DNA of 41,841 nucleotides from an uncultured Deferribacteres bacterium (GTDB taxonomy: Bacteria; Zhuqueibacterota; Zhuqueibacteria; Zhuqueibacterales; Geothermadaptataceae): positions 1-41,841 of the forward strand of contig CAXHAT010000054.1 in the NCBI GenBank assembly GCA_964014485.1. Reading direction: 5' to 3'. The position numbers and the translations under genes were made by a program. Shown here piece by piece: positions 6,775-17,222 of the stretch. Position 1 is the stretch's first letter, and every line of letters starts with the position of its first letter. The notes under the pieces are model-generated. The model was not told where the DNA came from. It was given only the letters and a program-made list of their open reading frames with translations, and made no database searches.

Positions 6775-7947
6775 ATGCGAAAGATTCTTATTTGCGCCAC
6801 ACTGATGTTGGCGGTGTATGGAACGACGATTCATGGTCAAGAGACGCGACAGGGTATCGCTTTCTCCGGATATGTGAAAATGGACGCCTTCTTCGATTCG
6901 CGGCAGAACGTTGCCGCACGCGAAGGGCATTTCCTGCTTTATCCCACGCCGACGTCATTCAACGATAGCGGCGAAGACGTCAATGCAACGCCCAACTTCA
7001 ATATTCTGGCCCTGCAAACACGCTTGAAAGGTACAATCACTGCGCCGGAAGCCTTCGGCGCCAAAACCGCGGGCGTCATTGAAGGGGCCTTCTTCGGCCA
7101 TACCAACGCAGACATCAACGGATTTCGTTTGCGCCACGCGTTTGCCAAATTGGATTGGCAAAAGACCAGTTTACTCTTGGGGCAATATTGGCACCCGCTC
7201 TTTGTAACAGCGGTTTTTCCGGGCGTTATTTCGTTCAACACAGGCGCACCGTTCCAGCCGTTTGCCAGAAATCCGCAGATCAGACTGACTCGCTCGCTGG
7301 GTTTCGGGACTTCTCTCATGCTGGCCGCATTGTCACAACGAGATTTTGCCAGCCCGGGGGGGAGCAGTTCTTTGCGCAATTCAGGCATCCCCGCCATGCA
7401 TGCCCAGGTGCAAGTGCGGCGTGCGGGAAACATATTTGGCGGCGGGGTCGACTTTAAGTCCCTGCGCCCCTCCCTCGAAAGTCACGAACAAGTTCAGGGG
7501 ATATCCTTGATTGGCTACACAAAACTCTCTCTGGGAAAAATCACTCTTAAACTGGAAGGTGTGCATGGCAAGAATCTTTTTGACGCACTGATGCTCGGCG
7601 GCTATGCTCCCCGCGCAGACAGCAGCTACGCGACGCTTTCCAATCGCTCCATTTGGGGCGAGATTATGGCTGGGGAAAGGACCCAAATCGGCGTTTTTGC
7701 GGGATATACCAAGAGTAGCGGCTGCGGGACAGAGATCACGGATTCAGAGTGTATTCGCGGTCAAGACATCGATTCCGTGCTTAGAATTTCTCCCAGAGTG
7801 GTCTGGAATTCAGGGAAAATGCGTTTCGCTGTCGAGACTGAGTATACCGTGGCGGCCTACGGCCGGGCAAATGCCAAATTGGAGGTCGAAAACCCGTCGT
7901 CCGTTTCAAATCTCCGGATATTGTTTGCATCGTACCTGTTCTTTTGA
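6775..7947 (+). CDS. Outer-membrane beta-barrel porin (DcaP-like)
   Basis: Signal peptide; FSGYVKMDAFFDSRQ, FRLRHAFAKLDW..LLGQYW and RNPQIR motifs; C-terminal aromatic residues (SYLFF). Confidence 0.75.
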   Translation: MRKILICATLMLAVYGTTIHGQETRQGIAFSGYVKMDAFFDSRQNVAAREGHFLLYPTPTSFNDSGEDVNATPNFNILALQTRLKGTITAPEAFGAKTAGVIEGAFFGHTNADINGFRLRHAFAKLDWQKTSLLLGQYWHPLFVTAVFPGVISFNTGAPFQPFARNPQIRLTRSLGFGTSLMLAALSQRDFASPGGSSSLRNSGIPAMHAQVQVRRAGNIFGGGVDFKSLRPSLESHEQVQGISLIGYTKLSLGKITLKLEGVHGKNLFDALMLGGYAPRADSSYATLSNRSIWGEIMAGERTQIGVFAGYTKSSGCGTEITDSECIRGQDIDSVLRISPRVVWNSGKMRFAVETEYTVAAYGRANAKLEVENPSSVSNLRILFASYLFF

Positions 7948-7991: not shown

Positions 7992-9416
<1,425 letters not shown>

Positions 9417-9472
9417 AGAAGGCATGATTCTGCTTTACAAACACCGCATTTCGTTTCCATTTTACCTCATAG

Positions 9473-9607
9473 GTTTCTGGCGCTTACGCCCCCGGCGCGC
9501 ATAAAGTCATTTGGGACGCGCGTGATAACTCCGGCGCCCGCGTGGCCAGCGGACTTTATCTCTACACGATCAAAGTCGGGCAGCAATTGACCGCGCAGAA
9601 GAAATTG
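9473..9607 (+). pseudogene. Orphan 3' fragment of a FlgD-Ig/T9SS sorting-domain gene, paralogous to 4095-4229
   Basis: Translates VSGAYAPGAHKVIWDARDNSGARVASGLYLYTIKVGQQLTAQKKL versus VSGDYAPGAHKVTWDARDNDGVRVASGLYLYTIKAGQQFTAQRKL; 113/135 nt identical by hand count; an in-frame TAG lies immediately upstream. Confidence 0.85.
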
Positions 9608-9627
9608 TTTATGAATAGGGCAATATG

Positions 9628-9655
9628 GTAGAGCCGCGATGCATCGCGGCTCTGC
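9628..9655. repeat. GTAG-type REP palindrome
   Basis: gtagagccgcgatgcatcgcggctctgc; perfect 24-bp palindrome at 9630-9653 within a sequence starting GTAG. Confidence 0.7.
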
Positions 9656-9722
9656 AACCGTGTGCGAAGAGTAACCTCACATCTGGAGGCCATCTGGCCG
9701 GATTGGAAATAGACGCCCGATG

Positions 9723-9755
9723 ACGCTCCAGACGCATTTTAAAGGTCTGGAGCGT
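9723..9755. terminator. Hairpin between convergent tpl and sbnB, possible terminator
   Basis: acgctccagac / gtctggagcgt 11-bp inverted repeat. Confidence 0.4.
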
Positions 9756-9811
9756 TTGTCATTGAGCAGTCCGCATTTTAGGGGATCGGGGAAGCTTGAG
9801 AATTGCTCGTC

Positions 9812-10825
9812 TCAAGACAAGGCGAGGAAATCTTCGATCACAGTGCCAATGCCGTTTTTCGCGGCGAAATCGCTGACGAAATGCGCGACGGCCATATCCA
9901 GCACGCCAAGCCCGAACGGAGAAAAAATAGCGACGCGATCATCGTCTGTCCTCGCTGGAATCGCGCCTTCGAGAATATCGGCCAACGAGCCTCGGACGAA
10001 GTCAGCGTTGCCCGACTTGAGCGAAGCCAAATGGATCGATGTTCTTTCACGATTGACGTGATCCAGATCGTCCACGAGATTGTCGCTGGCCAAAATGACT
10101 TCAGGGGTAAAGTCACGCAGCGAAACGTGCAGGATCGTAGATTTCGGTTCACACGGCGAAAGATCGGAAATGTGCGGTTCAATGGCGGAAGTGGCGATAG
10201 AAGTCAGGGAGCTGTAGGCGAGCAAATCGCTTGCGCTTGTTACAACGTCGACCGCCAGATTTTCATGAGCTTGTTCGCAGCGCGCCTTGAATTCTTCGGA
10301 GCGGTTGACGTCCGTATCAAAAACGGCGATGCTGGACAATTCCGGGAATTTCACCCGCAGAAACCGCAAAATCTGAAAATTGATCAACCCTGTGCCGATA
10401 AAACCGGCCCGTTCCGTGCGCTTGCCGTCCTGCAAAACGTAGCCCGCCAAAGCGGCGCTTGCCGCCGTGCGTACGGCGCTGACGATTGAGCCTTCCATGA
10501 CAATTTTGGGTCGACCGGTTTCGCTCGAGTTGAGGATAATTACAGCCGACGCGCGGGGCAGGCCTTGATTCAAGTTTTCCGGGAAAGAAGCGACCCACTT
10601 CATTCCGGTCGCTTGGAAATCCCCGCCCAGGTACGCAGGCAAAGTGATGATGCGGTTGCGCGCACTGTTCGGAAATCTTAAAAAAAGCGAATGCGGGCAG
10701 GAACTGTCGCCCTTGCCGTGAAATCTATACGCCATGCCGACCTGGTCAACAACTTCACTTTCCCGCCCATTTAAAATACGATTGATTTCTCCCCCTTTGA
10801 GAATCAGGATACTGTTTTCAGACAT
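9812..10825 (-). CDS. sbnB: 2,3-diaminopropionate biosynthesis protein SbnB (ornithine cyclodeaminase family)
   Basis: PHSLFLRFP...RIITLPAYLGG, GMKWVASFPEN...PRASAVIILN, SAVRTAASA, FIGTGLIN, LHVSLRD and FSPFGLGVLD; directly downstream of sbnA. Confidence 0.9.
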   Translation of the reverse strand: MSENSILILKGGEINRILNGRESEVVDQVGMAYRFHGKGDSSCPHSLFLRFPNSARNRIITLPAYLGGDFQATGMKWVASFPENLNQGLPRASAVIILNSSETGRPKIVMEGSIVSAVRTAASAALAGYVLQDGKRTERAGFIGTGLINFQILRFLRVKFPELSSIAVFDTDVNRSEEFKARCEQAHENLAVDVVTSASDLLAYSSLTSIATSAIEPHISDLSPCEPKSTILHVSLRDFTPEVILASDNLVDDLDHVNRERTSIHLASLKSGNADFVRGSLADILEGAIPARTDDDRVAIFSPFGLGVLDMAVAHFVSDFAAKNGIGTVIEDFLALS

Positions 10826-11859
10826 GTGAGACGTTCCTTCGTGTTACCAGTAATTTCATGTTTTTTAAGTAAATGAGAAATATCGCCAAAATGCTTTTTG
10901 ACCCAAGTTTCGGAAAAGACGGTGTCCAAATAGCGCTCGCCGCGATCCGCCACGAGCACGACGCAATTGGCGCCGTCCGGAATGATTGGGCGAGCGTATG
11001 CTATCGACTGGACAACGCCGCCCGACGATCCGCCAATCAGTACGCCTTCTTTTAGCCCCATTCTTCGGCAGCCAAGAATGCACTCCACATCATCGACGTG
11101 AATGCAATAATCCGCCGTCGCTTTTTTGGAATGCGGCGGCTTGATGCCCGCCCCCATGCCCGGCAGTTTGCGATCCGCCGGCTTGTCGCTGAAAATCATG
11201 CTGCCGACGGCGTCGACCGCAACGACCTTTGTCTTGAGATTGTGATCTCGCACGTATTCGGAAAATCCTCGCAGCGTGCCGCACGTACTGGTTGCGCAAA
11301 AAATGAAATCCAGTTTGCCGTCTAATTCTTCTGAGATTTCTTGAATCGTTTGTTTGTGAGATTCGGGGTTTTTGAGGTTCGAGTATTGATCGGGCCAGTA
11401 GCTGCTCTTGATGGTTTTGAGCAAATGCTGCACGCGGTTCAATCGAGCTTGCAGAAATTCGCCGGTTATCGGATCAGGCTCCTCCACCAAATCGATTTCC
11501 GCCCCCAGCGCGCGCAGGATGCGAATATTTTGCTGGGTCGTTTTTACGTCCACGACGCAGATGAATCGAATGTTGAGCGCGCGGCAAATCTGGGCAATGC
11601 CAATCCCCATGTTGCCGGAACTCGATTCGACAATGACCGTGTCCGACGTAATATTGCCGTTCTCGATTTCTTGTTTGAGAACTCTGAGCGCCGGACGATC
11701 TTTCAAACTGCCGCCCGGGTTCAACATTTCCAATTTGGCGTAGACGTTGAAGGGCCAGTTCTTGAAGAGATTCGAGAGTTTTATCAGCGGCGTGTTGCCG
11801 ATAGCCGGCAGAACGCCTTGTGAAAACGGGTCCGTAGACTGAAGCAATGAAGAATGCAT
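10804..11859 (-). CDS. sbnA: 2,3-diaminopropionate biosynthesis protein SbnA (PLP-dependent, cysteine synthase family)
   Basis: IGNTPL, KLEMLNPGGSLKDR, ESSSGNMG, FLQARLNRV, YWPDQYSN, ATSTCGT, DAVGS, RKLPGMGA and DRGERYLDT; overlaps sbnB by 22 nt. Alternative TTG start at 11865. Confidence 0.9.
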   Translation of the reverse strand: MHSSLLQSTDPFSQGVLPAIGNTPLIKLSNLFKNWPFNVYAKLEMLNPGGSLKDRPALRVLKQEIENGNITSDTVIVESSSGNMGIGIAQICRALNIRFICVVDVKTTQQNIRILRALGAEIDLVEEPDPITGEFLQARLNRVQHLLKTIKSSYWPDQYSNLKNPESHKQTIQEISEELDGKLDFIFCATSTCGTLRGFSEYVRDHNLKTKVVAVDAVGSMIFSDKPADRKLPGMGAGIKPPHSKKATADYCIHVDDVECILGCRRMGLKEGVLIGGSSGGVVQSIAYARPIIPDGANCVVLVADRGERYLDTVFSETWVKKHFGDISHLLKKHEITGNTKERLTCLKTVS

Positions 11860-11867
11860 AATCAAAT

Positions 11868-12674
11868 TCAGGGTTTTGAGTTTTCGAGCGTTATCATCCT
11901 ATCGTCATTTCGCAATTCCGTATAAATTTCGAGACACTCCGCAACGTGTTGTCTAAAGCTGTTGTTTGCTGGAAATTCTGTTATCTCCGGGGGCGTTTCC
12001 ACCGCTGGTTGCAAACCTGTGCTTTTGAGCACGCGCCGATACCAGTGGCTTTGCTCATCCCAAAGCTGGCCGATTTCAACTTTGTCCATGGATTCCCAGG
12101 AAAGGAATTTCTCCGAAAAAGGGAGGGAAGATTTTTCGAAGACGGACTGAAATATCGTCCGGGAGTGGTTTCTGAAATCTGTAGAATCGACTATCCAATA
12201 GGGAATTTTTTCTTTTTTGCAAAGCGCTAACTGCCGGATGAGATCGTCCCAGCCGGATTCAATGGCTGGAAAAACCGCATCTTGCCCGCCTTGTTTTCTT
12301 TTATTCATCCTTGAAAAAACGCTCAGGCGCGGGTCGCGAATCAGAAAAAAAATGGGGTGCGAGGTCAAAGATGCATAATCTAAAAAACGCTCCCCGACCT
12401 GAAAAGTCATCTCCTTGACGACAAGTCCGGCTCCTGCCTTCGAACGGTTCAGCACGCTGAGGTCAAGGGCGTTGAGAAGCGCGTTTTGGACGTCGTTCAT
12501 TTCCAGATTGCGGTGGTAGATCAAATCAAACGGTTCGTGGCAATAGTAACGAATGGAAGGCTGCTCCCAAAAAACGCGGGCGAATGCGGTGGAAGAAGTG
12601 CGCGGCGGCGCGATGATAAGATAAATATCGGAATATTTCTCGATGACTTTTTTCAAAACGTTCCTCTTGTCCAA
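11868..12674 (-). CDS. PAPS-dependent sulfotransferase-family protein (Sulfotransfer_5-like)
   Basis: 5'-PSB-like loop IIAPPRTSSTAF, then HEPF, VKEM and a 3'-PB-like FLIRDPR..S; C-terminal WY..VLKSTG. Confidence 0.75.
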   Translation of the reverse strand: MDKRNVLKKVIEKYSDIYLIIAPPRTSSTAFARVFWEQPSIRYYCHEPFDLIYHRNLEMNDVQNALLNALDLSVLNRSKAGAGLVVKEMTFQVGERFLDYASLTSHPIFFLIRDPRLSVFSRMNKRKQGGQDAVFPAIESGWDDLIRQLALCKKEKIPYWIVDSTDFRNHSRTIFQSVFEKSSLPFSEKFLSWESMDKVEIGQLWDEQSHWYRRVLKSTGLQPAVETPPEITEFPANNSFRQHVAECLEIYTELRNDDRMITLENSKP

Positions 12675-13957
12675 TTAACGATTAAATGTGCAAGTACTTT
12701 GGCGCATTGTACGATTTGTTCGATCTCGATAAATTCATCCACGGTATGCGCTTGCGCGACGTCTCCCGGGCCGTAGAGCACGGCGGGCACGTTGCCGTGA
12801 TTGGTGAAAAGCCGGAGATCGGAGCCGTAAGTGACGCCCTGAATTTCTGGATCGGCGCTATGCGTTTCCTTGTGCGCCGCACGCAAGTTTTTGACAATCG
12901 CGGAGTCGAGCGGCGTTTCCCCAGGCTCAAACTGGCCCTCAAACCATGCGACGGCGGGAGGGTGTTGTGCGAGCCATTCATCTTGCGCTGCTGTTTTCGA
13001 AATCACTGTTTCAAACGCTTTTCTTGCTTCAGGCAAGGCCTCGCCGGGAAAAACGCCCGCCCGTCCTTCAGCGACCAAAATTTCCGGCACGCTGGAGTGC
13101 CAATCCCCGGCGCGAACTGTTCCGATGCTGATTGGCGCAATGCAGTTGGGATCGGAGAAAACAGGATTTTGGCGGCGCGCGTGCCTTTTCCGGTCGAAAG
13201 CTTCAAGCGCTTTGAAAATCGGGATCATCTTTTCAATGGCGCAGACCCCGGTATTTTTCAGGCACGCGTGCGCGGCTTTCCCGTGAATTTTGAGGCGAAA
13301 GGTCATGGCTCCGGCCTGCGTTGGGCAAATGCGCAAGCGCGTCGGTTCCATGATGACGGCCGCGTCCGCGCGATAACCTGCAACCAAGGTCGTCAATGTG
13401 CCCACACCGCCGCTTTCCTCGCCAATCACGCTTTGGAGCAGAACCTCGCCTCCTGGCTGAAAGCCGATTTTCTGCAACGCTTCTACGGCAAAAATTGCGG
13501 CGCTCAAACCCGATTTCATATCGCAGGAGCCGCGACCGTATAGGTTGCCGTTTTCGATACGTCCGCTCCAGGGCGAATGCCGCCACAGGGATTCGTCGCC
13601 GGGCGAGACAACGTCGACGTGACCGTTGAGAATCAGACTTCTTCCTTTTGCAAAATTTGTCGCTGTTTTTACGCCGCGCCACTTTCCGACCACGTTAATA
13701 CGGTCTTGAAACGGAACGCCGTCGTCGCAAAATGCCGGATGGTCTTCCAAATCTTGCCGAATCGAGGGAATGATTTCGACCTGCAGGTTGAGGTGCTGAA
13801 GCTTCTGCGTGATGATTTTTTGCACCGCCTGCTCGTTTCCCGGCAAGCTGGGCGTTTGCACCAACTGCTGGGCAAAGCGAATCATTTCCGCTGAAATTTG
13901 CTCGACCGCCTGGTCGATTTGGGCGTGATTTGGAGCCGCGCGTTTTGAACTCGCCAT
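12653..13957 (-). CDS. ArgE/DapE-family M20 metallo-deacylase/peptidase
   Basis: SLILNGHVDVV, LYGRGSCDMKSG, GEESGG, MEPT, GKAAHA, GSDLR and YGPGDVAQAHTVDE. Confidence 0.92.
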   Translation of the reverse strand: MASSKRAAPNHAQIDQAVEQISAEMIRFAQQLVQTPSLPGNEQAVQKIITQKLQHLNLQVEIIPSIRQDLEDHPAFCDDGVPFQDRINVVGKWRGVKTATNFAKGRSLILNGHVDVVSPGDESLWRHSPWSGRIENGNLYGRGSCDMKSGLSAAIFAVEALQKIGFQPGGEVLLQSVIGEESGGVGTLTTLVAGYRADAAVIMEPTRLRICPTQAGAMTFRLKIHGKAAHACLKNTGVCAIEKMIPIFKALEAFDRKRHARRQNPVFSDPNCIAPISIGTVRAGDWHSSVPEILVAEGRAGVFPGEALPEARKAFETVISKTAAQDEWLAQHPPAVAWFEGQFEPGETPLDSAIVKNLRAAHKETHSADPEIQGVTYGSDLRLFTNHGNVPAVLYGPGDVAQAHTVDEFIEIEQIVQCAKVLAHLIVNWTRGTF

Positions 13958-14017
13958 AAAAGATCGTTTTGAAACTGAGAATAATGCTTGGGAAATTGTT
14001 TCGTTGCTCGGTGTGCT

Positions 14018-14554
14018 TCAAGAAGTATAGGCTCGAAGCATGGCAAAAATGACCACGCCCGTGACAGAGACGTACATCCAGATCGGGAACGTCCAACGTG
14101 CAAAGCGAGGGTGCTTGGCGAAATTCTTGGTGAGAGCGAGGTAGAGCGTGTAGAGAATCAACGGCAGCATGACCACCGAGAGCACGATGTGTGAGAAAAG
14201 AATGAAAAGATAAATCCCCTTCACCAGTCCCGTGCCGGGAAATACAGTGTGTCCGGTAAAATTGTGATAAATGACGTAAGAAATGAGAAACAACGCCGAG
14301 AAGACAATTGCTGAGAGCATGAATCGCATATGCGTGTCCTGCGCGCCGCGTTTGATGGCGCGAAAGCCAAGAACAAGGCAAATTGCGCTTAATGTGTTAA
14401 AAGTCGCGTTGAGTGCGGGCAATTTGGACACTGTCTCGGAAAACTCCGGCGAGGGGCCTTTAAAATAAATCAGCCAAAACAAAAACAGCGTGATCGCGCC
14501 GCTGATGGAAAATATGATTGTGAGTACCAGTCGATTGTTTTCTTTTTGCGTCAT
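14018..14554 (-). CDS. DUF420-family membrane protein
   Basis: LPALNATFN, H.RFM..A...SALFLISY..YH, ILFSHIVLS and H.RFARWT.PIW.YVSVTGV; ATG at 14554 gives 178 aa. Confidence 0.88.
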   Translation of the reverse strand: MTQKENNRLVLTIIFSISGAITLFLFWLIYFKGPSPEFSETVSKLPALNATFNTLSAICLVLGFRAIKRGAQDTHMRFMLSAIVFSALFLISYVIYHNFTGHTVFPGTGLVKGIYLFILFSHIVLSVVMLPLILYTLYLALTKNFAKHPRFARWTFPIWMYVSVTGVVIFAMLRAYTS

Positions 14555-14777
14555 AATCGAGTCAAGCGTTCCAGTAAAAAAAATGCCATGAATTTTTTGC
14601 CGCGCGAAGTGTACAACGCCGCGCGGCAAGGCGCAAGGAAAACAGGATTTCGCTGGTCTGATCGTTTTGCGAAACAACCCGAAAGTCTTGCGACAGCGCG
14701 ATGGCGTGACTAACTTGGCGAAAAAACAAACTGGTTGCACGAAGCACATTTTTTTTTGACTGTTGCGGAGGAAATCG

Positions 14778-17222
14778 ATGAAGTTTTTGAAAGCGGCGAT
14801 TGGCGTCGCTTTGTGTGCGGTGACGTTCTATTTTTTTAATTTCGCCCAAAATATCGCGGGATTTCCTTTGCCGCCGCTGGGCAAGTTTCTGAACCCGTTC
14901 ATGGGATTTTGGCAGAACAATGGTCGGCTGGACGCATTGCCCGAACAGTTGACGCTGGCGGGTTTGCAGGACGAAGTAAGCGTCGTTTGGGACGACCGCC
15001 GCGTACCGCATATTTTCGCGCAGAACGACCACGACCTTTATTTTGCGCAAGGCTACGTTACCGCCCGCGACCGGTTGTGGCAGATGGAGTTTCAAACGCA
15101 ATTCACGGCCGGCAGACTCTCGGAGATTCTCGGCGGACAGGCGCTTGCTTCCGATAAAAATCAACGCCGCCTGGGGCTGGGATTTGCGGCGGAGAACGCG
15201 ATAAAAGCGATGTCGAAGAATGCTGAGAACATGGCGGTGATTAACGCCTATGCTGACGGCGTGAACGCTTTTATCGCGACGTTGGACGCGCAGAGCCTTC
15301 CGTTAGAATACAAGCTTCTCGATTATGAACCGGAGCTTTGGACGCCGCTCAAATCCGCACTTTTGCTCAAAATGATGAGCTGGACGCTGACCGGGCGAAG
15401 CTCTGATCGCACGATGACGCGAACCCGCAAAGCGCTTGGCGACAGCTTGCTGCGAAAACTCTATCCAGAATACCCGCCGTTTCAAGAACCCATCATTCCG
15501 CCGCAGACGCAGTGGCGATTCACCCCGGAAAAAATCCCCGCCGCCGCGCCGCAATTCGACGCTGCCGCGCCCTCGAATTTTGAACTTGAGCAACCGGACA
15601 AATGGTACGGCAGTAACAACTGGGCGATTTCCGGAGCCAAAAGCGCCAACGGCTACCCGATTTTGAGCAATGACCCGCATCTCGGCTTGAGTCTGCCTTC
15701 TATTTGGTATGAGATGCAATTGAACGCGCCTGGCGTAAACGTCTACGGCGTGACGCTGCCGGGCAGCCCGGCCGTTATCATCGGCTTTAACGAGAGCGCA
15801 GCCTGGGGCGTGACCAACGCCGGGTCGGACGTTTTGGATTGGTATCAGATTAAATTTAAGGACGCTTCACGCACTGAATATTTTTATGACGGTGATTGGC
15901 GACCGACAAAAATGCGCATCGAAGAAATAAAGATTCGCGGCGGCGAAACGGTGCTTGACACGGTTTTTTACACGCACCACGGCCCGGTCGTGGCTTTTGA
16001 AAACGCGGGAAATGTGAGCGCGAACAGTCAGGTGGCGCCGGGAGCGGCCATGCGTTGGGCGCCGCATGAGCCTTCGAATGAATTGAACGCTTTTCTCAAA
16101 CTGAACCGTGCGCAAGACTACGACGATTATTTATCGGCGCTCAAAGATTATGATTATCCGGCGCAAAACTTCGTCTACGCTGACGTTCACAATAATATCG
16201 CCATTTGGCACAATGGAAAATTTCCTCTACGCTGGCCTGGACAGGGGAAATTTATTTTGGACGGCTCGAATCCTGAGCATGATTGGCAAGGGTGGGTGCC
16301 GAAGGAACACAATCCGCATGTGAAAAATCCGGAGCGCGGTTTTGTTAGTTCGGCGAATCAAAATCCGACCGATCCGAATTATCCGTACTATTTGGGGTCG
16401 AGTTGGGCGTCTTTTACGCGCGGCGCACGCATTAACGAGCGCTTGGAAGCGTTGCAAGGCGCCGCCCCGCGGGACATGATGGCTCTGCAATTGGATAACG
16501 CCAATCTGGCCGCCCGAACCATCTTGCCTCGGCTAATCGAGATAATTCCCGAAGATAGTCTCAATCAAAATGAAAAAGCGATGATGAAATCGCTCAAGGC
16601 CTGGAATTATGAGAACAACGCTTTCTGGGATGCGCCGACGATCTACGAAGAATGGGCGGATTTCTTGTACGAGCTGATTTGGGACGATGAGATGGAGCGC
16701 GAAAACGGAAATTTGCGCTGGCCACGTTCCGACGTGACCTTCGATTTAATTCTCAATCAGTCGGACAGCCCGTTTTTTGACAACAAAAAAACCGACGAAA
16801 AGGAAACGTTGCCCAGTCTTGCTCTTCTGGCCTTTCGGCAAGCGGCGGAAAAACTGGAAAAACGCTTTGGCGCTTTGGGCAAAGATTGGGCGTGGGGAAA
16901 GGCGCGCGGCACGGATATTCGACACATAGCGAGACTGCCCGGACTGGGGCGCGACCGTCTGTTTACCAACGGCAACGGCGGAATCGTCAACGCGACGGGG
17001 CGGTTTTTCGGACCGTCATGGCGCATGGTGGTCGAGCTTGGCCCTGAGGTGAAGGGCTGGGGCGTTTATCCGGGCGGACAATCCGGGAATCCGGGATCAT
17101 ATTTTTATGACGACATGGTTGACGATTGGGTGGAAGGTAAAACGTTTTCGCTGTTATTCTTGAAATCGCCCGATGAAAACAACGAAAGCATTGAACACAA
17201 AATGATGATGAGGCGGCAATGA
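14778..17222 (+). CDS. Penicillin acylase family (Ntn-hydrolase S45; penicillin/AHL acylase)
   Basis: VPHIFA...YFAQGYVTARDRLWQME, GSNNW (beta-chain Ser nucleophile), NDPHL, SANQ, GPSWR and PGGQSG; RBS ggagg before ATG 14778; N-terminal membrane anchor. Confidence 0.93.
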   Translation: MKFLKAAIGVALCAVTFYFFNFAQNIAGFPLPPLGKFLNPFMGFWQNNGRLDALPEQLTLAGLQDEVSVVWDDRRVPHIFAQNDHDLYFAQGYVTARDRLWQMEFQTQFTAGRLSEILGGQALASDKNQRRLGLGFAAENAIKAMSKNAENMAVINAYADGVNAFIATLDAQSLPLEYKLLDYEPELWTPLKSALLLKMMSWTLTGRSSDRTMTRTRKALGDSLLRKLYPEYPPFQEPIIPPQTQWRFTPEKIPAAAPQFDAAAPSNFELEQPDKWYGSNNWAISGAKSANGYPILSNDPHLGLSLPSIWYEMQLNAPGVNVYGVTLPGSPAVIIGFNESAAWGVTNAGSDVLDWYQIKFKDASRTEYFYDGDWRPTKMRIEEIKIRGGETVLDTVFYTHHGPVVAFENAGNVSANSQVAPGAAMRWAPHEPSNELNAFLKLNRAQDYDDYLSALKDYDYPAQNFVYADVHNNIAIWHNGKFPLRWPGQGKFILDGSNPEHDWQGWVPKEHNPHVKNPERGFVSSANQNPTDPNYPYYLGSSWASFTRGARINERLEALQGAAPRDMMALQLDNANLAARTILPRLIEIIPEDSLNQNEKAMMKSLKAWNYENNAFWDAPTIYEEWADFLYELIWDDEMERENGNLRWPRSDVTFDLILNQSDSPFFDNKKTDEKETLPSLALLAFRQAAEKLEKRFGALGKDWAWGKARGTDIRHIARLPGLGRDRLFTNGNGGIVNATGRFFGPSWRMVVELGPEVKGWGVYPGGQSGNPGSYFYDDMVDDWVEGKTFSLLFLKSPDENNESIEHKMMMRRQ

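Follow-up and report, generated by a model that had tools for sequence, protein, structure and literature searches.

A sulfotransferase encoded with SbnA and SbnB: a candidate route to sulfated diaminopropionate without an assembly line

What does a bacterium make from a gene block that joins the two enzymes of L-2,3-diaminopropionate (Dap) synthesis to a sulfotransferase? The question is raised by contig CAXHAT010000054.1 of an uncultured Deferribacteres bacterium (assembly GCA_964014485.1), whose whole stretch of 41,841 nucleotides we analysed and refer to as the window. A preliminary description of this DNA had pointed to four minus-strand genes, lying between positions 9812 and 13957, as a candidate pathway to a sulfated Dap metabolite that would operate without a nonribosomal peptide synthetase (NRPS). 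Siderophores, tuberactinomycins and monobactams are all built with Dap, which, to our knowledge, has so far been tied to NRPS or to NRPS-independent siderophore (NIS) machinery. Our best reading of the block, a tentative one, is that it makes N-sulfo-Dap, either free or transiently acylated, without an NRPS. This reading is built on the identities of the genes, the coupling of all four, the conservation of three of them as a unit, the sulfotransferase fold of one product and the presence in the genome of genes that make the sulfate donor 3′-phosphoadenosine-5′-phosphosulfate (PAPS).

The block consists of four co-directional open reading frames (ORFs) on the minus strand. The first (12653-13957) encodes an M20 metallohydrolase of the ArgE/DapE deacylase type, of 434 amino acids (aa). 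It is followed by the genes for a sulfotransferase-fold protein of the Sulfotransfer_5 family that we call ST (11868-12674, 268 aa), for the pyridoxal phosphate (PLP) enzyme SbnA (10804-11865, 353 aa) and for the NAD-dependent enzyme SbnB (9812-10825, 337 aa). The stop codon of the M20 gene, TGA at 12655-12653, lies inside or directly against the start of ST. Two TTG codons are candidates for this start: the one at 12674 would give a 22-nt overlap with the M20 gene, and the one at 12656 a 4-nt TTGA overlap. We consider the latter the more likely true start, because AGAGGA stands 6 nt upstream of it and because it is the start adopted by the database and Atlas records. The ST stop occupies 11870-11868 and SbnA starts at TTG 11865 or ATG 11859, leaving a gap of 2 to 8 nt, and SbnA and SbnB overlap by 22 nt (SbnB ATG at 10825, SbnA TGA at 10806-10804). 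The ORF coordinates thus bear out the positions given for the four genes by the preliminary description, and the stop and start codons bear out the tight junctions, 22-nt overlaps or a gap of a few nt, that it had described.

The same description had stated that the 42 kb hold no NRPS, NIS synthetase or ATP-grasp ligase. Our family scan covered 26 non-overlapping ORFs of at least 150 aa in the window, and among these we found no NRPS, no IucA/IucC synthetase and no ATP-grasp ligase, in agreement with that statement; no member of a kinase or lyase family was found among them either.

Both enzymes of Dap synthesis are clearly recognizable. SbnA scores 397.3 bits against TIGR03945 (equivalog cut-off 349.95) and SbnB 398.0 bits against TIGR03944 (equivalog cut-off 326.9), with an additional match of SbnB to OCD_Mu_crystall at 112.6 bits. 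In a HMMER alignment with Staphylococcus aureus SbnA (5d84; 267 bits, 310 residues aligned), the equivalents of K47, which is the PLP lysine, and of R132, Y152 and S185 are all identical in the window protein. The last three residues are cited as those selecting O-phosphoserine in the S. aureus enzyme (PMC12414870). The predicted activities are those of the staphylococcal pair: SbnA would convert O-phospho-L-serine and L-glutamate into N-(1-amino-1-carboxyl-2-ethyl)-glutamic acid (ACEGA), and SbnB would split ACEGA into Dap and 2-oxoglutarate.

The identity of ST is less evident from its sequence and was approached through its fold. Its sole Pfam match is Sulfotransfer_5 (PF19798, 27.6 bits against a threshold of 23.2), no NCBIfam model matched, and a sequence search of the PDB returned nothing at E up to 1. 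An AlphaFold model built on a 25-sequence alignment reached a pLDDT of 93.5 and a pTM of 0.92. Foldseek gave 29 matches to this model at E up to 0.001, headed by the sulfotransferase domain of CurM (4gbm), the tyrosylprotein sulfotransferases (TPST) 1 and 2 and the OLS sulfotransferase domain (4gox), all with probability 1.0, TM-scores of 0.42-0.58 and identities of 10-17%; a few adenylate-kinase and HypB chains appeared lower in the list. As modelled, ST is a sulfotransferase-fold protein of the PAPS type. Two stretches of the family are invariant, P23-P24-R25-x-x-S28-T29 and R113-D114-P115-R116...S121-R122, and are candidates for the 5′-phosphosulfate and 3′-phosphate binding motifs. Both belong to the 54 columns, in an alignment of 78 ST sequences, where one and the same residue reaches at least 85% conservation in each of the two context groups. 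The Atlas records for ST comprise just clusters named 'sulfotransferase-like domain' and eukaryotic fusions to Aminotran_4 or rhodanese, and the homologues listed with a source name are all called hypothetical or 'sulfotransferase domain' proteins.

One fusion protein deserves separate mention. In P0163 (720 aa) an ST-family domain (193 bits) is combined in one chain with a lysine/ornithine N-monooxygenase domain (PF13434, 312.7 bits). The protein is a singleton cluster from one public assembly, and is a lead only for a role of ST on the side-chain nitrogen of a diamino acid; a metagenome scan for its context confirmed no relative, and no N-monooxygenase homologue was found in the window or in the 80 ST loci described below. 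More distant Sulfotransfer_5 relatives carry NUDIX fusions (P0190, P0208, P0228).

The preliminary description had made its proposal depend on the sulfotransferase being kept beside sbnA and sbnB in other genomes. We scanned one genome per species for ST relatives, confirmed 90 and kept 80 loci (labelled L003 and so on), in which neighbours were counted by tblastn with several queries and ORFs were picked with GC3 guidance. The family is rare: out of 1.84 billion, 92 cluster representatives have E up to 1e-30. A gene for a fold-type-II PLP enzyme (PALP) lies no more than 3 kb from ST in 35 of the 80 loci, and an SbnB-type gene, always together with an SbnA-type PALP gene, in 25. These linked loci span at least seven phyla (Cyanobacteriota, Acidobacteriota, Verrucomicrobiota, Rhodothermota, Bacteroidota, Pseudomonadota and Actinomycetota), so that the sulfotransferase is indeed kept beside the Dap genes. 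The three genes keep the same orientation, in the order ST-SbnA-SbnB or SbnA-SbnB-ST, and most of these triad loci have no NRPS within 9 kb.

Where co-directional pairs were tested against NCBIfam, the SbnA cut-off was reached in five of five and the SbnB cut-off in four of five: both proteins were over the cut-offs in L049, L005, L011 and L015, and in L076 SbnA reached it (351.0 bits) with an SbnB fragment just short (320.2 against 326.9). A Streptomyces locus (L078) holds a separated SbnA/SbnB pair with both members over the cut-offs, and in L007 and L018 the SbnB genes are over the cut-off and the PALP genes under that of SbnA. No protein above the TIGR03945 cut-off was found in any of 14 control genomes, and the linkage of ST to SbnA and SbnB is therefore far beyond chance. 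Transporter genes lie beside several homologous loci (LysE in L079, MATE-like in L005, GltP-like in L052), which suggests that an amino acid, small and charged, is exported or taken up.

The M20 gene behaves otherwise. Its product matches Peptidase_M20 (121.3 bits) together with M20_dimer and, scoring 301.5 bits with TIGR01910 (cut-off 217.6), belongs to the ArgE/DapE deacylase subfamily. The protein reaches no equivalog model (PRK06915, 399.7 against 428) and is not YgeY, the albizziin hydrolase (TIGR03526 and NF009555, 158 and 131 bits against 321 and 321.5). Among solved structures its best match is 3pfo (220 bits), described as a 'putative acetylornithine deacetylase'. An M20 gene lies within 3 kb of ST in only five of the 80 loci. 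Four of these (L003, L053, L074 and L079) carry a common type with only local similarity to the window's M20 (31% identity over 58 residues for L003), and the fifth, L008, carries a true YgeY (506 bits), 2.7 kb from its ST. The M20 gene had been presented as a member of a conserved set; this part of the proposal did not hold, since the types tested are of the L003 kind or YgeY and not orthologues, and we rejected the window's M20 as a conserved partner of ST. Our results show that the conserved unit is ST with SbnA and SbnB and not the four-gene set. The repeated recruitment of different deacylases nevertheless suggests that a deacylation step is useful in such pathways.

The L003-type M20 forms a recurring module with ST in Ktedonobacteraceae and three actinomycete genera (L003:5247-9512, L053:5040-11176, L074:6483-9711, L079:4786-13982). 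It is accompanied by GNAT and methyltransferase genes in L003, L053 and L079 and by a methyltransferase gene in L074; L079 additionally has an SbnA-like gene, SbnB, LysE, MetK and AhcY, and L003 lies inside a PKS-NRPS cluster (PKS, polyketide synthase).

Which ST proteins are tied to Dap becomes clearer once the family is divided. Five alignment columns separate two types. Type I has T, S or A followed by F (positions 90 and 91) directly after an invariant K87-E88-M89, with further differences at 202, 208 and 211; type II has P-Y after K-E-M and D...H...L at 202, 208 and 211. The window's ST is of type I, in a subgroup that we call TFGQW, with the motif KEM-T-F-Q-V-G; together with the window, the four loci carrying the L003-type M20, whose ST proteins are also of type I, account for five of the nine members of this subgroup. 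L008 has a type-II ST. Linkage to Dap is seen in 22 of the 31 type-I members (the window counted) and in 6 of the 47 of type II, the six being a single clade with a ThrC-like gene. Nine type-I loci are unlinked. Two of these encode an SbnA at a greater distance, scoring at the cut-off in L003 (6.9 kb from ST) and below it in L074 (3.4 kb). In three of six unlinked type-I genomes tested SbnA is encoded elsewhere. The type of ST found in the window is thus largely tied to Dap.

The Dap-linked type-II clade (L011, L018, L031, L033, L042 and L050; for instance L011:8992-14484) occurs in Bacteroidota, Verrucomicrobiota, Rhodothermota and Xanthomonadaceae. Its triad is followed by a ThrC-like PLP enzyme, which scored about 301-311 bits against PRK08197 (cut-off 303) in the three tested. 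In L018 this gene stands between those for SbnB and the PALP protein, and in L011 a gene resembling OSBS/N-succinylamino-acid racemase is added after it. The genome of the window has no close copy of the ThrC-like gene, the best match being 30% identical and on another contig.

Several lines of evidence bear on what ST sulfonates. Besides SbnA and SbnB, a second link to Dap comes from a true YgeW near ST in L044 (641 bits), with an 88%-identical copy in L043 (tblastn), YgeW being found in these two loci among the 80, and from the YgeY near ST in L008. Albizziin is N-β-carbamoyl-Dap. The M20 hydrolase YgeY of Escherichia coli acts with YgeX to turn albizziin into pyruvate through a Dap intermediate, and YgeW, with phosphate, helps to form albizziin from a diureido precursor (PMC12507026). 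A precedent for sulfonation is SulN, which N-sulfonates the β-amine of Dap with PAPS on an NRPS-bound tripeptide (PMC11298585).

The gene order in L078 points the same way. This Streptomyces cluster (L078:6052-18795), which L075 resembles, holds genes for an ATP-grasp amino-acid ligase, a DUF1015 protein, ST, SbnA, CysC, CysD, CysN, an ABC transporter, SbnB and an FAD-binding protein, and has the look of a complete pathway whose product would be sulfated, dipeptide-like and Dap-containing; CysC, CysD and CysN, the genes of PAPS supply, are close to the ST homologue. DUF1015 has been proposed as an SbnI-like serine kinase (bioRxiv 10.1101/2024.10.14.618325). Since DUF1015 covers serine activation in L078, ST would act there at another step. 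Taken together, the linkage to SbnA and SbnB, the YgeY and YgeW neighbours, the order in L078 and the SulN precedent favour Dap or a Dap derivative as the acceptor.

The DUF1015 argument is directed at an alternative in which ST works before SbnA and not after it. Here ST would O-sulfate L-serine, SbnA and other fold-type-II PLP enzymes would take the O-sulfoserine instead of O-phosphoserine, and the block would yield plain Dap. ST would thereby stand in for the kinase (SbnI, DabA) of the known three-gene modules for Dap or 2,4-diaminobutyrate (Dab). Triads of an activator, a β-replacement PLP enzyme and an amine-releasing enzyme are established with the threonine kinase DabA, DabB and DabC (PMC10906522). 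The neighbourhoods of ST fit such a role in that the PLP enzymes beside it, the PALP genes of the 35 loci, are of several kinds and not SbnA alone: CysK-like genes adjoin it in Myxococcota (L054 and L066 were tested, and L062 and L082 have a similar appearance), L008, L043 and L044 have a divergent PALP protein there, and ThrC-like genes lie within 3 kb in seven loci. RidA stands beside ST in four loci. DUF1015 does so in L017 and L078, and clustering places homologues of it in L035 and L037. The fold matches include CurM and OLS, whose sulfotransferase domains sulfate a hydroxyl to make a leaving group, and the high conservation of ST over all contexts would fit a universal acceptor such as serine.

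Against this stand the O-phosphoserine-selecting residues R132, Y152 and S185 retained by the window's SbnA, although these could bind a sulfate ester too, and the fact that O-phosphoserine is a primary metabolite. Furthermore, DUF1015 and ST would be redundant in L078 if both activated serine, the two ST types differ at five positions, of which 90 and 91 directly follow K87-E88-M89, which may mean different acceptors, PAPS is costly as an activator, and we identified no consumer for free Dap as an end product in this genome. Searches for 'serine O-sulfate' and related terms gave nothing relevant in the literature searched. We regard serine activation within the block as unlikely. Its broader form, in which the whole ST family is an amino-acid-level activator and O-sulfo-L-serine a third activated serine after the O-acetyl and O-phospho forms, feeding SbnA, CysK-like and ThrC-like enzymes, would explain why ST is found beside varied PLP enzymes, RidA and DUF1015 in many phyla; we consider it improbable.

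In three Acidobacteriota loci (L017, L035 and L037) a type-II ST has a RidA-domain gene immediately upstream and a convergent DUF1015-type gene downstream, with neither SbnA nor SbnB within 9 kb of ST.

The preferred reading, N-sulfo-Dap made without an NRPS, can be laid out as follows. SbnA and SbnB would make Dap from O-phosphoserine and glutamate. The dedicated PAPS-dependent ST would then modify Dap or a close derivative, most likely by N-sulfonation of the β-amine, to give the free sulfamate N-sulfo-Dap. M20, translationally coupled to ST, would probably unmask an amine, and this could happen at either of two points: it may act on an N-acyl or N-carbamoyl precursor to release Dap, in the way that YgeY acts on albizziin, or it may strip a protecting acyl group after sulfonation. 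We infer the acceptor, the sulfonated atom, the substrate of M20 and the fate and role of the product from the comparisons above. A sulfated-Dap product is the best supported of these, and the product of the block is probably an undescribed sulfated amino acid. No NRPS-free module of ST, SbnA and SbnB was described in the literature searched, which did not cover subscription-only papers; there, sulfonation of Dap was found only for the NRPS-bound SulN of sulfazecin. Accordingly, the block matches no characterised cluster in that literature, as had been supposed.

A number of observations weigh against this reading. The locus counts are not phylogenetically independent, since 14 of the 25 linked loci belong to one Conexibacter-like clade, and our quick tree of ST (from which L022 and L040, with stops in the matched stretch, and L082, with too short a match, were left out) does not resolve the base of the family. 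In 45 of the 80 loci there is no PALP gene within 3 kb of ST. Three of the six unlinked type-I genomes tested have no SbnA over the cut-off, and neither has any of the five ST-alone genomes tested, four of them of type II; the tie to Dap therefore does not extend to the entire ST family. The folds nearest to ST belong to O-sulfotransferases, the 'activating' domains of CurM and OLS among them, and the present data do not separate N-sulfonation from O-sulfonation. Finally, the M20 partner is specific to this genome and a local addition: a 60%-identical orthologue occurs in a genome of the same family that has neither an ST match nor an SbnB-family match, flanked by an AHSA1-like gene (with an ArsR-type regulator beyond) on one side and an alpha/beta hydrolase on the other.

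Some of these observations could be read as mere adjacency, with ST acting on an unrelated acceptor, M20 being a resident housekeeping hydrolase, and SbnA and SbnB making Dap for another use or serving in catabolism or detoxification. The varied contexts in which ST stands alone in those 45 loci and the orthologue of M20 in a relative without the other block genes are what such a view would expect, and no substrate is given for Sulfotransfer_5 (PF19798) in the literature searched. On the other hand, stop/start overlaps run along the whole block, and the triad is seen again, its common orientation kept, in at least seven phyla. Because both the ST family and SbnA are rare, chance adjacency in 25 of 80 loci is not credible, and we give little credence to separate functions.

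The genome around the window supplies what the sulfonation would need. It encodes two APS kinases (APS, adenosine-5′-phosphosulfate), and PAPS can therefore be made. ST was found in none of 40 relatives of the lineage, and SbnB was over its cut-off in one of the 40. The absence of ST from these relatives makes the block accessory in the lineage, and it is probably an operon acquired horizontally. The G+C content of the four-gene block, 0.51-0.53, is similar to that of its immediate flanks; over the window (1-41841) it ranges from 0.44 to 0.63 in 2-kb windows.

A further alternative keeps the sulfonation and moves it onto a remote assembly line: SbnA and SbnB would supply Dap, and ST would act in trans on carrier-bound Dap, like SulN, to yield a sulfonated peptide, monobactam-like or other. 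In L003, L048 and L057, NRPS or PKS genes do adjoin ST homologues of the window's type. The genome has a single condensation-domain locus, a hybrid PKS-NRPS on contig C3 (L102:16225-18957 and L102:6584-16006, both minus strand). It comprises an A-PCP protein (adenylation and peptidyl carrier protein domains) followed by a KS-AT-aminotransferase-C-A-PCP-TE megasynthase (ketosynthase, acyltransferase, condensation and thioesterase domains), and its thioesterase has the nucleophile motif G-Y-C-M-G, with cysteine instead of serine. The thioesterase of SulM also uses cysteine, and the criteria for such a sulfazecin-type thioesterase (SulTE) are a Gln-Cys-Asn motif, an Asp at position II and a basic pocket (PMC11298585). 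The C3 enzyme has Tyr-Cys-Met where Gln-Cys-Asn is required. The SulM thioesterase was not among its 37 PDB matches at E up to 0.001, the best of which was 7dxo/7crn, 'Non-ribosomal peptide synthetase 4'. The locus has a single A domain for an amino acid, and this is nearest to that of the second module of LgrA (574 bits), a glycine-activating module.

On the strength of the thioesterase motif, the PDB matches and the LgrA-like A domain, we rejected the C3 NRPS as a monobactam line. The C3 locus is moreover on another contig, with no sulfotransferase in the part examined, and most triad loci elsewhere lack an NRPS within 9 kb. No match to IucA/IucC (PF04183) was found in the genome, which is 97% complete. 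The idea of an NRPS-free pathway hence fits the genome, with no IucA/IucC gene and a sole PKS-NRPS that fails the SulTE criteria and has a glycine-module-like A domain, and a remote assembly line is very unlikely.

The surroundings of the block add little to its interpretation. A gene for a DUF420 membrane protein (14018-14749, minus strand; PF04238, 148.8 bits) lies 60 nt upstream of the M20 gene and may be co-transcribed with it. Its membership of the unit is doubtful, and tblastn found no DUF420 homologue in any of the 80 ST-related loci. Divergent from it is a gene of the penicillin-amidase family of Ntn hydrolases (14763-17222, plus strand, 732.6 bits); as only 13 nt separate the two annotated starts, at least one of them is probably further in. 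On the other side, a tyrosine phenol-lyase gene (8001-9416, plus strand; TIGR02618, 766 bits against a cut-off of 720.7) is convergent with sbnB, and upstream of it lies a 390-aa ORF with no family match (6775-7947). The whole window matched no Rfam family and so offers no riboswitch clue, and a scan of 9300-15000 was uninformative for both promoters (9 sites, 4.1 expected) and terminators (14 sites, 10.0 expected).

What these results add is a three-gene cassette, present in at least seven phyla, that couples Dap synthesis to a dedicated and uncharacterised sulfotransferase subfamily. The cassette points to a free sulfated diamino acid, the novelty being that Dap synthesis and sulfonation would be combined without an assembly line. 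N-sulfo-Dap, if it is the true product, is shaped like O-phosphoserine and O-sulfoserine, which makes it a candidate antimetabolite, signal or osmolyte. The cassette also offers a first clue to the function of part of Pfam Sulfotransfer_5, and a soluble enzyme that sulfonates free Dap, if ST is one, would be useful for chemoenzymatic routes to monobactam precursors.

Among known systems, the nearest in concept is the sulfazecin pathway of Pseudomonas/Paraburkholderia acidophila (SulG/SulH with SulN), in which Dap synthesis of the SbnA/SbnB type is likewise encoded with a PAPS-dependent sulfotransferase; ST and SulN are likened here by gene context and chemistry. In sulfazecin, however, SulN works on a carrier-bound tripeptide and a Cys-thioesterase then closes the β-lactam, whereas the 42 kb of the window contain no NRPS and the genome's only one fails the SulTE motif test. 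The staphyloferrin B locus of S. aureus shares orthologous SbnA and SbnB, by equivalog score, with the catalytic and substrate residues of SbnA kept; it has sbnI and NIS synthetases, in place of which we find no IucA/IucC and no SbnI, but a sulfotransferase and an M20 enzyme. The dabABC genes of Burkholderia monobactam and other clusters form a similarly compact module, in which an accessory enzyme is joined by a PLP enzyme like SbnA and by one that releases the amine (PMC10906522). In the window the accessory enzyme has a sulfotransferase fold and is not a threonine kinase, the third enzyme is SbnB, NAD-dependent and of the ornithine cyclodeaminase family, and not the argininosuccinate-lyase-like DabC, and the amine donor is presumably glutamate instead of aspartate.

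The reductive degradation of urate by YgeW, YgeY and YgeX resembles our system in the action of an M20 enzyme on a Dap compound and in the true YgeY and YgeW found beside ST homologues; that pathway is catabolic, the window's M20 is not YgeY, and the window has neither YgeW nor YgeX. The CurM and OLS domains and the tyrosylprotein sulfotransferases, lastly, are the closest solved folds to ST, with putative cofactor motifs that look alike. Their acceptors are a β-hydroxyacyl chain bound to an acyl carrier protein or a protein tyrosine, and they are megasynthase domains or Golgi enzymes, whereas ST is a small stand-alone bacterial protein encoded beside amino-acid genes.

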